IMG/VR virus record: IMGVR_UViG_648276647_000008
Strand: one strand, 5' to 3'
DNA length: 35,321 nucleotides
Origin: a virus
Taxonomy: Duplodnaviria > Heunggongvirae > Uroviricota > Caudoviricetes
Made by a program: the position numbers and the translations under genes. The first letter of the stretch is position 1; the number at the start of each line of letters is the position of its first letter. Shown piece after piece: positions 9,294 through 14,715 of the stretch. The notes below the pieces were generated by a model, which saw only the letters and a list, made by a program, of their open reading frames with translations, searched no databases and was not told the origin of the DNA.

Positions 9294-9905
9294 TCAAAGA
9301 GAAAAGCTAAAGCCCAGAAGGGAAGCCAAAGAACTTGAGGATTGGTTAAACGTGCTGTGCAATGCGAAGGTCATTGGGAATGACTTAAATTCAGTAACCT
9401 GATCTCGCGCATAGGTGACATCGCCGGTAGTGACCGGGAATACCGTCATCTCATTTTCCAGTTTGGTTAAGCCGGAAGACAGCAACCGATAAATACGCAC
9501 ATTGAGCAAATATTTAGACGGTATATTCCCGGTACCGTCCGGATTGATCACCCGACTTTTTGCCGTCTTAAACCAGTCCAAAACGAGGCCATCAACGGTA
9601 TCCCTGACCATCATTGTTATCTGCCCTGGCGAGCGCTCCGTTGGTTGAAGGATATTCCCTCCGCCGATTTTAATCGTTTCATATTCGATGCTGTAATCGT
9701 GGTAGGTAATATCTTTGGCAAAGAAGTCTGCCCCCTCCAGTCCATCAACTTCGACAGAGAACTGCCATCCTTGCGCGAACAGCATTTTGTTCATGATGAT
9801 TGACGTCAGCTTACCAACTTCCCGTTCACCAACGCCGGAGCCAAATAATGTCGTCGTTAATGCCGAAGATACATAAGACTTTACTGAAGCAACATTAAAC
9901 CCCAT
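9294..9905 (-). CDS. Putative tail protein (P1 tub-like, by position)
   Basis: 203-aa ORF tightly packed between the pmgC-like and pmgB-like genes on the minus strand. Confidence 0.35.
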   Translation of the reverse strand: MGFNVASVKSYVSSALTTTLFGSGVGEREVGKLTSIIMNKMLFAQGWQFSVEVDGLEGADFFAKDITYHDYSIEYETIKIGGGNILQPTERSPGQITMMVRDTVDGLVLDWFKTAKSRVINPDGTGNIPSKYLLNVRIYRLLSSGLTKLENEMTVFPVTTGDVTYARDQVTEFKSFPMTFALHSTFNQSSSSLASLLGFSFSL

Positions 9906-9915
9906 ATCAGCCCTC

Positions 9916-10523
<608 letters not shown>

Positions 10524-10636
10524 TTGTCATTTGTTACCGGTCAGTCTACACATTTCAGATACTATGTTAAAACAACTCAAGTGCTTCAAGTAGCACATCG
10601 TCATCAACACCCAGCCCCAAGATACGGTGATAAAAT

Positions 10637-11671
10637 TCAAGCCTTAAGAGGCTTTGTGTATGTTCGTGTAATCCATCCAGTAATAAACTCGTCCCCTGAT
10701 TTAACCTGCACGAAAAGCCATTGGCGATCTTTTTTATCTAAAACAGCCACTATAGTATTTTTGCCAATGCATTCAATCACCTCACTATTTATAGAAGGAC
10801 TGACGTGTAATCTTACGTTCTCACCAGTTATAAAACGAAAACCATTGAGATCTTCCCAACTAATTTCTTTGTTTTCTTTAATTAATTGTTGTTTTGATAT
10901 TGGTTTATCCTCAAACAGAGATATAAAATATGATTCTGCCTTGTGTATTCCCAGCAAGGTTTTCTCTTTTCCGTAATCAATAAAAGCACCAAACACAACT
11001 TGAGAAAATATAACCATTAGTAACCATTGCAGTGGATAAGGAAGCTCTTTAAATGAATCAACAAACTTTGAGCTAGGTTTATTTAATCCTTTATTTTGAA
11101 CATTACTTTTGGTGTGTGATGTTTCAGTAGCACCTTCAGCATAAGCCTGCGCAATAGATGAAATCCCCTGCTCTATTATTTGATGTAATGAAGCATTTCT
11201 TGTTCTAGCATAGTGATCTAGTACTTTCTTTATGTCTTGGCTTACATCTATTTTATAACTTGCACTTTGTTGTAATTCTTTAAGTATCGCTTGCATGTTA
11301 TTTAAACCAGCTTGCTTATTAAGCACCTCAAGCTGTTTTCGTAATGGCATAGCTATTTCGGCCTGTTTCCTTAGAATTTGAATATATCTATTTGCGTCAT
11401 GAGGGAAAAGAGCCTGAGTCTGTTTCTGTAAAATCGCGATATGTTCACGATACTTGCTGCCTATTCCAGCCAAGTTCGGTATACTAGCCAATTGTTTTCG
11501 AAGAGAGTTACTAATTACAGCTTGTCTATTCAATCTTGTCATATTTTGAAAAGAATGTTTTTCTATTCCTAATTGTTTTTGCAAGATCGCTACGTGATCT
11601 TTGTATGATGGAATGAGCACTGACTGTTTATACAGTAACTTCAACTCATTAGAATTAGTAATTTTTGTCAT
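10637..11671 (-). CDS. Membrane-anchored protein with N-terminal ~45-aa repeats and C-terminal SH3b-like domain
   Basis: ORF track gives 355 aa from a TTG; the first ATG (MTKIT...) is at 11671. Repeats (HVAILQKQ... / HIAILQKQ... / YIQILRKQ...), one hydrophobic helix (LQWLLMVIFSQVVFGAFIDY), C-terminal segment resembling bacterial SH3. Markedly AT-rich relative to flanking phage genes. Confidence 0.5.
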   Translation of the reverse strand: MTKITNSNELKLLYKQSVLIPSYKDHVAILQKQLGIEKHSFQNMTRLNRQAVISNSLRKQLASIPNLAGIGSKYREHIAILQKQTQALFPHDANRYIQILRKQAEIAMPLRKQLEVLNKQAGLNNMQAILKELQQSASYKIDVSQDIKKVLDHYARTRNASLHQIIEQGISSIAQAYAEGATETSHTKSNVQNKGLNKPSSKFVDSFKELPYPLQWLLMVIFSQVVFGAFIDYGKEKTLLGIHKAESYFISLFEDKPISKQQLIKENKEISWEDLNGFRFITGENVRLHVSPSINSEVIECIGKNTIVAVLDKKDRQWLFVQVKSGDEFITGWITRTYTKPLKA

Positions 11672-11745
11672 ATTATTCCATTTATATAATAGAATATTAC
11701 GCAACCAATGTTTTATTGATTGCGTTAATCTTTAACACAGAAAGA

Positions 11746-12222
11746 TCATTTGCCTCGTTTAATACATCCATCCATTTTGGCTTGTTGATACAACTTACTT
11801 AGCCCAGAAAGAGGGAATGTAGCAATTTTTTCATTATCAACATAAGCATCAATCATATTAGCATTTGAATCTGCTGCATCTTGCCAAAAGGCATACCACC
11901 AAGAATCTCCAACCATTGATCCAAGATTGCTAAAAGGATATTGCTCACCATCTATAGTTAATACTATTTTATTCTTGTCAGCATTATACTCTTTTTTATT
12001 ATTCGACGAACTTAGCAACAAGCCTAAACTACCTGCACTATCTGGTGAACCATACATGAATCCCATATCACATAAAAAACTTATCTTATCACCATTATGA
12101 TTATGGATTGTATATTCTCTCCCCCCTCTCTCTTCAATTACATTCCATTGTAGAGGATCAATTTTTGCAAATGTTCCTGCTGAAACTAACGATACAAATA
12201 ATAAAAACCATCTCATATTCAT
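11746..12222 (-). CDS. Secreted/periplasmic protein with N-terminal signal peptide
   Basis: 158-aa ORF; N-terminus MNMRWFLLFVSLVSAGTFA is a typical Sec signal peptide; AT-rich; no recognisable catalytic motif. Confidence 0.5.
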   Translation of the reverse strand: MNMRWFLLFVSLVSAGTFAKIDPLQWNVIEERGGREYTIHNHNGDKISFLCDMGFMYGSPDSAGSLGLLLSSSNNKKEYNADKNKIVLTIDGEQYPFSNLGSMVGDSWWYAFWQDAADSNANMIDAYVDNEKIATFPLSGLSKLYQQAKMDGCIKRGK

Positions 12223-12244
12223 TCTTTTCGCTTCTTATCTGTAA

Positions 12245-12595
12245 TTATTCTGCAATATCATTTGCCCATTGCACGGCAGCAAAATGAGTACCCAAACCAC
12301 TCAGGAAAGCAATTACCCCCAAAACAATACTTGCTGCTGTTGATTCAAACAAAGTACCAATACTATAGCCAATAGCTCCCCATACTAAGCTAAATACAAT
12401 CATCAATGGTATTGCCAGAAATTTTATTCTTAAACTAAAAATCAGTCCAAGAAAAGAACCGCCAAAGGCCCACCATGATTTAGACATTAAACCTATCAGT
12501 ATTGACAGAATTCCTATTTCAATAAAGAGAATATTAGATTGCTCTTCATTGAATTTCGCATTTGTTACACCTTTACGAACATGTTCAGATGACAT
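12245..12595 (-). CDS. Small polytopic inner-membrane protein
   Basis: 116-aa ORF with 3-4 predicted TM helices; ATG at 12595 preceded by AGGAGA RBS. A TTGACC-17-TATGCT promoter-like element lies upstream on the minus strand at ~12640-12670. Confidence 0.5.
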   Translation of the reverse strand: MSSEHVRKGVTNAKFNEEQSNILFIEIGILSILIGLMSKSWWAFGGSFLGLIFSLRIKFLAIPLMIVFSLVWGAIGYSIGTLFESTAASIVLGVIAFLSGLGTHFAAVQWANDIAE

Positions 12596-12678
12596 GATTA
12601 ACTATCTCCTGCCACAGATAAAACGTCTTAAAATAACATTTTGTAGCATAAAGTTTCACCATGCAATGGTCAAAATCT

Positions 12679-12707
12679 TTGACCCATATCAATTAAACTC
12701 ATACATT
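12679..12707 (+). promoter_or_regulatory. Sigma70-like promoter (TTGACC-17 nt-TACATT) directed towards the immI operon
   Basis: Hexamers and 17-nt spacer read from the sequence; positioned like the P1 c4/icd/ant promoter upstream of the operator motif and candidate c4 RNA. Confidence 0.45.
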
Positions 12708-12741
12708 TTAGTTACCAGAGAAATAATTTACATGGTTGCAA

Positions 12742-12758
12742 ATTGCTCTAATTATTTT
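12742..12758 (+). promoter_or_regulatory. C1-repressor-operator-like 17-mer (ATTGCTCTAATTATTTT)
   Basis: 15/17 match to the asymmetric P1 C1 operator consensus ATTGCTCTAATAAATTT as recalled; three more copies occur in the window. Confidence 0.5.
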
Positions 12759-12831
12759 ATTTTTTTAGCTTCATATGCTACATTAACTTGCTTGCGTGCT
12801 AATGCATTTTCGGTTTATCCTAAACAGGCAT

Positions 12832-12908
12832 CTTAGTAAAACGGATGCCGGGATTGGAACCCCGGATAATGCAAAAGGCGACATAGACGCCAAAAGCGTC
12901 TTTTTTTT
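12832..12908 (+). ncRNA. c4: Candidate c4-like antisense RNA (immI repressor RNA)
   Basis: Non-coding segment between promoter/operator and icd. Hairpin GCCGGG-ATTGGAA-CCCGG presents ATTGGAACC in its loop; a second hairpin GACGC-CAAAA-GCGTC is followed by T8 (intrinsic terminator). Complement GGTTCCAAC occurs ~13010 and a second ATTGGAACC copy at ~13045. Boundaries approximate. Confidence 0.4.
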
Positions 12909-13093
12909 GTGTCATGCCATCGCACAACCATACGTAGCACATAGCTCCGAGATCAATGGTAGTGCTGGCTGGGCTGCCGAAAGGCAGGCCGGTTCCCTTT
13001 TGCGCCGGTAGTTCCAACCCAGTCAGTGCTACCGCCATTGAGATTGGAACCTCACGCGGTAGCTCCTTAAATTAGCAAAAGGAGGCTGCCATT

Positions 13094-13315
13094 GTGGCTA
13101 CTATCCCTACCCCTACTCATCCTGAATTTATCTGGCGCTTTTACTCCTGCCAAAAACACCACTATCACTTCGTTATCGCAGCAACAGAAGACGAAGCACG
13201 CTCTCAATTGCCTGATGGCCCCTGCATTTTTACAGCCCGTTTTTCAACTAACTCGCGCAATTCACTTAGTTACTGGAGCCTCCCCTTCTCTGCCGACGTT
13301 CAGGGGGGTTTATGA
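13094..13315 (+). CDS. icd: Small protein overlapping the ant start (Icd-like cell-division inhibitor)
   Basis: 73-aa ORF with GTG start at 13094 and AAGGAGG RBS ~10 nt upstream; its stop overlaps the ant ATG. Size and position match P1 icd as recalled. Confidence 0.55.
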   Translation: MATIPTPTHPEFIWRFYSCQKHHYHFVIAATEDEARSQLPDGPCIFTARFSTNSRNSLSYWSLPFSADVQGGL

Positions 13316-14715
13316 AAACACCTCTCGTCACCCGTAATGAAATAGCCGAAGCGATCGCCCTGCATACTGCCTGTATGCCGACACGGGAGATCCCCGGCGC
13401 AATTGCCAACTATTTCATGATAACCAGACGTTTTTATACCCGAACAGATAAGGCTGTGATCAACAGGCTACTGATAGCCGAGATCAGGGATTATTTGATT
13501 GAACAAGGACGTCTACGTTACGCAACAGTGGCAGCAGAAATGAGAAAGGAGGCACACAGAGTGACCGGTAATAATTTGAATGTTGAAAAAACAGCACCTG
13601 TTACGTCAGCTACGCCAGCACCAGCCGTGAATATCATCCCCAACACCGGAGACACAATCGACAGCCTGACACTGTTAAAGATGGTCAATGAAGCGCGTAA
13701 GTTATGTGGGGAACCAGAGGTTCGGAACAACAAATTCATCGAAAAAATACTCGATGAGCTTGATGGTGAGCACTACACAAAAAGTGTAGTGGAAAAAATG
13801 AACAAAACATCAATGCTTGTCATAACCATGACATACAAACAAGCCCTGCGCGTTGCTGCTCGCGAATCGAAAGCGGTCCGCCGTTCGCTACATACCATGA
13901 TTCAGGCATTGGAACCTATAAATGTTGAAAATCATCCTGATGAAATTCCCGTTCTGGAATGGCAGGGAGTACGCGTCGTGACAACCGAGACTCTTGCTAG
14001 AGGGTATGGCACTACACCTATTCGTATTCAGCAGAACTACAATCGCAATGAAGAACGATTTGTAGAGGGTAAACACTTCTTTAAAATCAAAGGAGATGAG
14101 ATAAAAAGTTTGCGACTATCTTTTAGCGAGTTGCAAATTTCCCCCAAGACCAGATCCTTAATACTCTGGACCGAACGCGGAGCGGCACGCATGTCTAAGA
14201 TCGTAGACACAGAGCAAGCGTGGGCATTCTTTGAAAAACTGGAAGACAGCTACTTCCGGCAAAAAGAACAGCAACCGGTCGCAATCCCCCAGACGCTTCC
14301 CGAAGCTCTGCGCCTGGCTGCCGAGCTGGCTGAACAAAAGCAGCTACTGGAACAGAAAACCCACCAGCTAAATCAGCAGCTGGTGGCCGCAGCCCCTAAA
14401 GTCGATTTTGCCGACCGGGTATCAGTGGCTAATGGAATCCTGATCGGGAACTTTGCAAAGGTCGTTGGACTTAAGCAAAACGCCCTTTTCTCATGGTTGC
14501 GCCAGAACGGCATTCTCATGGCTTTTGGTGCGCGCAAAAACGTACCGCGCCAACAGTACATCAACGCCGGGTATTTCACGGTGAAAGAAGTGGTGCTGGA
14601 TGATGAAAATGGCTACCAGATACGGCTGACGCCCCAATTAACGGGTAAAGGCCAGCAGTGGTTAACTCGCAAGCTACTTGATGCTGGTTTGTTAAAACCA
14701 GTAGCAATAGGTTAA
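13312..14715 (+). CDS. ant: Antirepressor (Ant; AntA-like N-terminal region plus KilAC/ANT C-terminal domain)
   Basis: 467-aa ORF; C-terminal ~140 aa are ~65% identical to the C-terminus of the downstream KilA-like protein (read from the translations). Internal in-frame Met residues could give a shorter Ant2-type product. Confidence 0.75.
   Translation: MKTPLVTRNEIAEAIALHTACMPTREIPGAIANYFMITRRFYTRTDKAVINRLLIAEIRDYLIEQGRLRYATVAAEMRKEAHRVTGNNLNVEKTAPVTSATPAPAVNIIPNTGDTIDSLTLLKMVNEARKLCGEPEVRNNKFIEKILDELDGEHYTKSVVEKMNKTSMLVITMTYKQALRVAARESKAVRRSLHTMIQALEPINVENHPDEIPVLEWQGVRVVTTETLARGYGTTPIRIQQNYNRNEERFVEGKHFFKIKGDEIKSLRLSFSELQISPKTRSLILWTERGAARMSKIVDTEQAWAFFEKLEDSYFRQKEQQPVAIPQTLPEALRLAAELAEQKQLLEQKTHQLNQQLVAAAPKVDFADRVSVANGILIGNFAKVVGLKQNALFSWLRQNGILMAFGARKNVPRQQYINAGYFTVKEVVLDDENGYQIRLTPQLTGKGQQWLTRKLLDAGLLKPVAIG

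Follow-up and report, generated by a model that had tools for sequence, protein, structure and literature searches.

In phage P1 the superimmunity (sim) genes lie between the tail operon and the immI region. Three AT-rich genes at the same place in a related element raise the question of whether they are homologues of sim or cargo that has been swapped in, and what such cargo might do. We addressed this question in IMG/VR record IMGVR_UViG_648276647_000008 (Caudoviricetes), which derives from a P1-like phage-plasmid; the whole stretch of DNA analysed, 35,321 nucleotides in length, is referred to here as the window. The open reading frame list of the window places three co-directional minus-strand genes, A, B and C (Table 1), between pmgC/LPsit and the c4 immunity region, with the coordinates and lengths given in an earlier note made from the sequence. 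The genes of the left flank, pmgB, tub and pmgC, have 97-98% identity to P1 and P7; c4-icd-ant-kilA-repL makes up the right flank. According to the P1 annotation, simC/B/A occupy the pmgC/LPsit to Oc4/c4 interval on the strand opposite c4, while in P7 upf50.0/upf50.5 fill the same pmgC-to-Oc4 interval; annotation and flank homology thus confirm the sim map position that the earlier note had assigned to the trio. Its description of a cassette much more AT-rich than its surroundings also held, the GC content being 0.356 in A, 0.340 in B, 0.345 in C and 0.343 in the whole cassette, compared with 0.474 in the left and 0.479 in the right flank. So did its view of three envelope proteins, with a signal peptide, hydrophobic segments and a transmembrane helix predicted in B, A and C, respectively. 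The simABC genes constitute one of eight highly variable low-GC regions in P1-like phage-plasmids (PMC9603915; PMC6906374) and were non-essential in a CRISPR interference screen (PMC10695390). In this element, the allele at the P1 sim hot spot spans window positions 10536-13120. The hot spot is a low-GC recombination slot that separates the tail-tube/sit late operon from immI (c4-icd-ant) and is filled, in different P1-like phage-plasmids, by interchangeable genes for envelope proteins.

The occupants of the slot in the window are not recognizable relatives of sim. BLASTP searches (word size 2) of A, B and C against SimA, SimB and SimC gave E-values >1 throughout, and hhalign of the profile of the YfjT family, to which we assign B below, returned probabilities of 0.5% for SimC and 0.8% for SimB, with the signal peptides alone aligned. 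On these results we rejected sim homology in favour of swapped-in cargo, a choice that the earlier note had left undecided. The A/B/C locus and P1 sim have in common their map position, low GC content (0.343 and 0.336, respectively), strand, small secreted or envelope products and character as non-essential cargo. However, P1 sim contains neither a polytopic membrane protein nor a bitopic SH3 protein, both of which are present here, and forms one operon, compared with two modules in the window. A known defence system was also considered and rejected, searches of PADLOC and NCBIfam being negative. In PHROGs, each of the three proteins has one dedicated family, with no function assigned.

Comparison with related elements (designated by L numbers) showed that the trio is a mosaic of two modules and not a single unit. 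Module 1 belongs with the allele of L019, with which the window has 91.6% DNA identity over 11752-13429, and blastn detected no similarity between 11617 and ~13120 to P1, P7, L010, L013, L016 or L020. Module 2 together with pmgC is 86.6-93.7% identical to L010, L013 and L016 over 9900-11616 (L013: 9900-11454), and homology to P1 and P7 ends at 10535-10537. The joint between the modules had no blastn match in any compared allele; it supplies the first 18 codons of C, which is consequently 344 amino acids (aa) long instead of 389-394 aa, and C aligns to residues 60/65 onward of these longer alleles. Each of the three families also occurs elsewhere without the others: A and B are accompanied by a DUF4760 gene in place of C in L019, and YfjT genes are found without SH3 genes. 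The single three-gene cassette under one promoter that the earlier note had envisaged is therefore not supported. Synonymous divergence (dS) between C alleles is 0.26-0.71, 5-10 times that of the adjacent pmgC (0.05-0.08; window 9916-11671 compared with L010, L013 and L016), which argues that old alleles have been shuffled by recombination onto a young backbone. The jump in dS from pmgC to C falls inside one continuous blastn alignment, marking a sharp boundary between young backbone and old cargo. Ratios of non-synonymous to synonymous divergence (dN/dS) were 0.08 for A and 0.21 for B (window compared with L019), while C as a whole gave 0.38-0.43, its repeat region 0.39-0.51 and its SH3 domain 0.18-0.20, indicating that all three are real genes under purifying selection; averaged over each gene, dN/dS gave no sign of positive selection for A, B or C.

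By following homologues we collected at least seven fillings of the slot. These are simA/B/C in P1; a lipoprotein and a DUF5384 protein in P7; a gene termed X with a YfjT-type gene directly abutting pmgC (L018, L020); X with YfjT and an SH3 protein (L010, L013); A, B and C in the window; A and B with an opposite-strand DUF4760 gene (L019); and, in Escherichia albertii (L016), a 107-aa hydrophobic protein with the P7 pair, truncated X, truncated YfjT and SH3. We inspected slot products other than the DUF4760 protein; all of those read begin with hydrophobic segments, a signal peptide or a lipobox, the SH3 protein excepted, since it lacks a signal sequence at its N-terminus. The X+YfjT, X+YfjT+SH3, A+B+DUF4760 and P7 upf50.5/upf50.0 alleles share the slot, low GC content and envelope-targeted products with the window. 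Compared with the X-bearing alleles, the window has A where they have the SimA-like X gene and an isrK-type leader where they have c4-a1b1, and its B is only 27-37% identical to their YfjT genes.

Several of these fillings bear on how cargo has accumulated. P1 SimA (52 aa; L001 3413-3571) aligns at 92% identity with the N-terminal 41-51 residues encoded by the longer X genes (L013 3901-4419, L010 3928-4419, L020 2802-3449), which occupy the head of the slot, encode 163-215 aa and weakly resemble PTP-like phytases; to judge from this alignment, P1 simA looks like the 5' remnant of a longer gene. The DUF4760 protein (297 aa; L019 4029-4922, NZ_CP023961.1 21587-22480; Pfam E=8e-14) replaces C in about half of the A-B carriers and had no PADLOC match. 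The stacked cargo of E. albertii (L016 1904-6170; GCA_050851655.1) includes homologues of the P7 lipoprotein and DUF5384 genes (88% and 81%) and a 5'-truncated YfjT gene, and illustrates accretion by recombination.

A census of the PLSDB plasmid database by tblastn placed the window's allele in context. The flanks are carried by 541 records, about a third of which (182) contain YfjT-family genes, and carriers of the A, B or C families are almost all P1-sized, non-mobilizable plasmids of Escherichia, Salmonella, Klebsiella and Citrobacter. About 27 plasmids of ~90-100 kb match window positions 10400-12900 at 97.7-99.4% identity over at least 80% of that region; most come from E. coli, and Salmonella and Klebsiella contribute one record each. 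Among deposited phages, we found no record with the cassette, C or A, and only distant homologues of B.

Gene B is, on the evidence of its sequence, a distant member of the YfjT family (PF27224). Its product starts with a classical signal peptide (MNMRWFLLFVSLVSAGTFA, followed by K) and has no further hydrophobic segment. The family is precomputed on P0049, the cluster representative 99% identical to B, and BLASTP aligned B with YfjT of E. coli K-12 at 28% identity over 143 aa (E=1.1e-9). Across 15-18 members including K-12 YfjT, the residues C51 and W109 do not vary, and C153 and W26 hardly do. The AlphaFold2 model of B is confident (predicted local distance difference test score (pLDDT) 87.4), with about nine strands and a long helix. 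K-12 YfjT, encoded in the cryptic prophage CP4-57, has the same length as B and shares the signal peptide, the cysteine pair and the tryptophan, and yfjT likewise follows genes for a small glycine-rich membrane protein (ypjK) and a lipoprotein. It differs in being chromosomal and prophage-borne with other neighbours, and A is not similar to YpjK. The family is small, an exhaustive HMMER search of 50%-identity representatives giving 21 matches at E<=0.001, a few of them repeat proteins or fragments, and a motif scan with the close lineage of B over species-representative genomes found nothing.

Within the slot, the B family is the most persistent occupant. Its 182 PLSDB records comprise 27 with at least 95% identity to B, 28 with 90-95%, 1 with 80-90% and 126 with <60%. 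A YfjT-family gene adjoins pmgC-tub-pmgB-sit even in divergent P1-like elements and phages, namely L018 and two deposited P1-like phages, Cronobacter phage JK004 and Ro157c2YLVW, where it again adjoins the tail operon. The family also recurs at ~25% identity in Serratia and Pectobacterium jumbo phages of one clade, with genomes of ~275 kb. The YfjT-family genes of Serratia phage Moabite (gp315; L022 2974-3417) and of 8 related jumbo-phage records are annotated 'adhesin', a label that rests on the depositors' HHpred match to Neisseria ACP (5MY7) and is probably misleading.

Neisseria ACP is an MliC/PliC-like lysozyme inhibitor (PMC5507604), and the depositors' match to it concerns a jumbo-phage protein 25% identical to B. 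When we aligned the YfjT profile with E. coli MliC, hhalign gave a probability of 46% for the full-length and 1.4% for the mature-only comparison, much of the full-length score coming from the alignment of the two signal peptides with each other. Between the mature regions the score was 15.8 over 56 columns, a value reached by 1 of 300 shuffles, and six secreted decoys scored 8.7-14.7. The MliC/PliC/ACP signature motifs SxSGAxY and YxxxTKG (PMC5507604) are not retained in the aligned segment of B (LGSMVGDSWWYAFWQDA), and the segment aligned to the motif region is a helix in the B model. None of the YfjT family members matches Pfam MliC, and fold searches with B recovered neither MliC nor PliC nor ACP; B did not show an eight-stranded beta-barrel superposable on theirs. 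MliC, PliC and ACP are small secreted beta-proteins with a disulphide from an early strand to the C-terminus, and B has a matching cysteine pair and a weak, co-linear hhalign match to MliC; B differs in its extra strands, its long helix and its lack of the motifs. A lysozyme-inhibitor-like role for B is only weakly suggested by these comparisons.

Gene A encodes a protein with about four predicted hydrophobic segments (Kyte-Doolittle peaks at residues 20-38, 44-62/57-75 and 85-108), which matched phrog_15014 at E=1e-75 and had no match in Pfam, NCBIfam or PADLOC. It was present in 53 PLSDB records, 50 of them with at least 95% identity. Within P1-like plasmids A occurs with B, and the 53 records approximately match the ~55 that carry B at 90% identity or more. 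Outside P1-like plasmids, homologues of A at 58-72% identity are single genes with unrelated surroundings, a Vibrio contig among them. One, in Vibrio metschnikovii (L009; 62% identical), lies directly downstream of an AAA_15/AAA_21 ATPase gene, and a 45%-identical homologue is found on plasmid NZ_CP064061.1 (11573-11914) of the Gram-positive thermophile Anoxybacillus caldiproteolyticus, a surprisingly wide spread for a 116-aa membrane protein.

The product of gene C, 344 aa from its ATG and 355 aa from an upstream TTG at 11704, has a single transmembrane helix predicted by hydropathy. Its N-terminal 200 aa contain six [LI][QRN]KQ motifs, compared with 0.08 expected, and none of 5000 shuffles reached six. 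The C-terminal match to SH3_3 (PF08239; E=1e-5) covers profile positions 2-52 of 54 and scores 26.0 bits, just under the Pfam cut-off of 27.0; the same domain is precomputed on 46 of the 48 C-homologue clusters, and RefSeq names the protein 'SH3 domain-containing'. The AlphaFold model of C, built from a 33-sequence alignment, is poor (pLDDT 41.5), and searching PDB sequences with a profile yielded only a compositional match, to a helical repeat protein. The family is narrow, its 48 clusters being confined to Enterobacteriaceae, and occurs in 64 PLSDB records (24 with at least 95% identity, 35 with 60-80%); C is 61-83% identical to the SH3 genes of other slot alleles. In distant homologues, identity rises from 21% in the N-terminal part to 43% in the transmembrane helix and 72% in the SH3 domain. 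These homologues (L004 6001-7446, L006 6001-7350 and L005 6001-7194; 397-481 aa, 40-45% identity) are solitary genes and carry other repeat units, for example ADSVSLSERITKLAQGSTI. In Citrobacter and Salmonella P1-like elements the distant homologue lies a few kb from a 2262-aa DarB-like gene, and in Yersinia it directly follows umuD/umuC-like genes.

The regulatory signals around the cassette also point to A and B as a unit. The promoter TTGACC-17-TATGCT that the earlier note had proposed is present in the sequence, and an AGGAG ribosome-binding site precedes the ATG of A, but a single promoter for the whole trio is not supported, A+B and C being separate recombination modules. We consider the promoter plausible on its sequence, with the caveats that promoter-like sites are not enriched in the AT-rich stretch (8 found, 11.1 expected) and that the -10 element in L019 reads TGTGCT instead of TATGCT, while the -35 element and the 5' untranslated region are conserved. 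The palindrome at the -35 element, GGTCAAAATCTTTGACC, is imperfect in L019 and could also bind a regulator. Using a C1 operator consensus as a scan query, we found five sites in the window, compared with 0.19 expected, one of them a perfect match at 33337-33353. The site equivalent to Oc4 lies ~70 bp from the cassette promoter, making repression of the latter by C1 unlikely. The hairpin after B is kept in L019 through two fully compensatory changes (C-G to T-A and A-T to C-G) and one change from a T.G wobble to a C-G Watson-Crick pair, which speaks for a functional hairpin at the close of the A-B unit; lying between B and C, this hairpin suggests that the promoter drives A-B and not the whole trio. 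The isrK leader is confined, among eight alleles, to the window and L019 (2686-2895), P1, P7 and four others having c4-a1b1, and the isrK-type leader may mean that a different immI specificity is co-inherited with A-B. In the ant position the window has a 467-aa open reading frame (13312-14715, plus strand), compared with 347 aa for P1 Ant1, and the near-identical plasmid L003 is annotated there with a 272-aa KilAC-domain protein that starts further downstream. In this immI variant, the organization of the antirepressor region may differ.

Table 1. Features of the variable slot and its surroundings; positions are those of the window
Feature	Position	Strand	Description
Gene A	12245-12595	minus	116-aa predicted polytopic inner-membrane protein with glycine-zipper-like motifs; PHROG 15014, function not assigned
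Gene B	11746-12222	minus	158-aa secreted (predicted periplasmic) YfjT-family protein; conserved cysteines C51 and C153
Gene C	10637-11671	minus	344-aa predicted bitopic protein; Q/K/L-rich helical repeats ~1-200, transmembrane helix 213-233, SH3b-like domain 285-338
Module 1	11752-13120		B, A, promoter, C1 operator and isrK-type/C4 leader; one block in common with the A+B+DUF4760 allele
Module 2	10536-11616		Gene C from codon 19 to stop, with 3' hairpin; in common with the X+YfjT+SH3 alleles
Joint	11617-11751		135 bp, unique; first 18 codons of C and the hairpin after B
Promoter TTGACC-17-TATGCT	12673-12645	minus	Sigma-70-like, upstream of A; 9/12 consensus matches
Palindrome GGTCAAAATCTTTGACC	12668-12684		Two back-to-back -35 TTGACC boxes, minus (cassette) and plus (toward c4)
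C1-operator-like site ATTGCTCTAATTATTTT	12742-12758	plus	Oc4 equivalent; two mismatches to consensus
Hairpin after B stop codon	11699-11725	minus	11-bp stem, from terminator-like scan; probable end of the A-B unit (terminator-like or stabilizer)
Short hairpin	10639-10654	minus	Overlaps the C stop codon; possible insulator from LPsit/pmgC; weak, from terminator-like scan
immI leader	12828-13039	plus	isrK-like small RNA 12828-12906 (RF01394, 58.3 bits, gathering threshold 50), then C4 antisense RNA 12952-13039 (RF01695, 76.7 bits)

What, then, might these genes do? We tentatively favour a role for A, B and C in superinfection exclusion, expressed from the lysogen and acting after adsorption, at the level of the periplasm, peptidoglycan or inner membrane. 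The A-B unit travels with its putative sigma-70-type promoter, C1 operator and isrK-type c4 leader and is closed by the conserved hairpin. A would be a glycine-rich inner-membrane protein with about four transmembrane segments, and B a periplasmic, probably disulphide-bonded beta-protein of the YfjT family. C would be a bitopic inner-membrane protein, the fast-evolving helical repeats of which most likely face the cytoplasm, whereas its near-invariant SH3b-like domain is most likely periplasmic and would bind a conserved target, probably peptidoglycan. They would block entry of the DNA of P1-like or other phages after adsorption, in keeping with the function that Sim has at the same place in P1. 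Exclusion is favoured, circumstantially, by the position of the locus, by the envelope theme running through the seven fillings and by the persistence of YfjT beside the tail-tube and sit genes. It is favoured further by the occurrence of YfjT in jumbo phages, a genome type in which, we infer, a secreted protein could serve exclusion, by a promoter that the C1 operator does not overlap and by the maintenance of old alleles through recombination. A sub-threshold resemblance of the P7 lipoprotein to TraT (E=7e-5) also speaks for it. We know of no place in P1 other than the sim slot with a demonstrated exclusion function; the link of sim to exclusion is made in the title of Kliem and Dreiseikelmann (1989). 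A working analogy is also at hand.

T4 Spackle and Imm, HK97 gp15 and lactococcal Sie2009 are superinfection-exclusion proteins of the periplasm or inner membrane that block DNA entry after adsorption, Spackle by inhibiting the tail lysozyme. They are small and either periplasmic or anchored by one transmembrane helix, and differ from C in having no long N-terminal repeat domain. Several observations weigh against an exclusion role. None of the three proteins showed sequence or profile similarity to a proven exclusion protein, the comparison being with Sim, and no model in PADLOC-DB v2 was matched by A, B or C at E<=1. PADLOC also has no match for SimC or the other slot occupants, so its silence is uninformative for exclusion genes. 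The papers found report no phenotype for K-12 YfjT, and our literature search returned no functional paper on YfjT, DUF4760 or the A/B/C cargo; phage-plasmid surveys, in the portions available, screen for known defence systems and make no mention of slot cargo. Finally, homologues of A and distant homologues of C are solitary genes, some in plainly non-phage chromosomal contexts.

A bolder version of the exclusion role, which we hold to be improbable, would make YfjT proteins unrecognized phage-encoded periplasmic exclusion factors that neutralize the SLT domain, which cuts peptidoglycan, of the Sit protein (tape-measure/injection) of incoming P1-like phages, in the manner of Spackle. A, in the membrane, and C, tethered to peptidoglycan, would act as exchangeable partners, and the isrK linkage of A-B would reflect co-inherited immunity and exclusion specificities. 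If true, this would explain both the YfjT gene directly upstream of pmgC-tub-pmgB-sit in divergent P1-like elements and the recurrence of the family in jumbo phages. Quite different is the possibility, unlikely but deserving real weight, that the three genes have no joint function and are unrelated morons that hitch-hiked into a recombination-permissive, AT-rich slot, each with its own benefit or none. The separate occurrence of the three families, the module boundary between B and C with the 5' end of C truncated and replaced at the joint, and the stacking of cargo from several alleles, including a truncated YfjT gene, in E. albertii all fit this explanation. It sits less well with the constant pairing of A and B in P1-like plasmids, where they have a promoter-to-hairpin unit in common, and with purifying selection on all three genes, while the envelope character of the slot occupants argues for a common selective theme.

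We regard as rather unlikely a lysogenic conversion that benefits the host in its animal-associated or environmental niche and not against phages, with B as a periplasmic lysozyme inhibitor of the MliC/PliC/ACP kind and C and A stabilizing the envelope. The HHpred match to 5MY7 and the YfjT-MliC alignment, both full-length and mature, would speak for it, as would the pairing of an early-strand with a C-terminal cysteine in B as in MliC and ACP, the origin of carriers from gut, urine and blood isolates, and the weak, sub-threshold resemblance of the P7 lipoprotein to the serum-resistance protein TraT (E=7e-5); the missing motifs and the fold of B, described above, bear on the same question. Abortive infection, in which C would sense damage to the envelope or peptidoglycan through its SH3 domain and signal through its cytoplasmic repeats to A as a membrane-disrupting effector, seems very unlikely. 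A is a small glycine-zipper polytopic protein, a type that may often be toxic when over-expressed, C is predicted by hydropathy to place one domain on each face of the membrane, and the Vibrio homologue of A follows an ATPase gene. However, A and C belong to different modules and A is without C in about half of its carriers, PADLOC gave no match and none of the three proteins has an enzymatic or nucleotide-binding domain, and A, which is under strong purifying selection and probably expressed constitutively, is a poor fit to a toxin without an evident antitoxin. Map position, gene number and the presence of signal-peptide proteins could still be read as signs of highly diverged SimA/B/C homologues, but in addition to the negative BLASTP and hhalign comparisons, lengths and architectures differ (52/111/264 aa compared with 116/158/344 aa) and the true relatives of SimA are the X genes of other alleles, not A; we give this explanation next to no credence, as it is effectively refuted at the level of sequence and profile.

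The variability of the slot has been published, and RefSeq already lists A, B and C under hypothetical or SH3-domain names, with PHROGs for each. New here are the finding that the cargo is not sim, its division into two modules, the series of alleles, the link between A-B and an isrK-type immI leader, the assignment of B to the YfjT family by sequence, and the recognition of this family as the slot's common denominator. P1-like phage-plasmids, which carry resistance genes, are frequent in Enterobacteriaceae of clinical and food-chain origin, and the rules by which they coexist with or displace one another are poorly known. If the genes proved inert against phages, the locus would be another low-GC moron hot spot of the kind already described. 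The unrelated sets of envelope proteins that fill the slot are concrete candidates for new exclusion mechanisms, and a role of B in exclusion would give a first functional handle on the E. coli y-gene yfjT.

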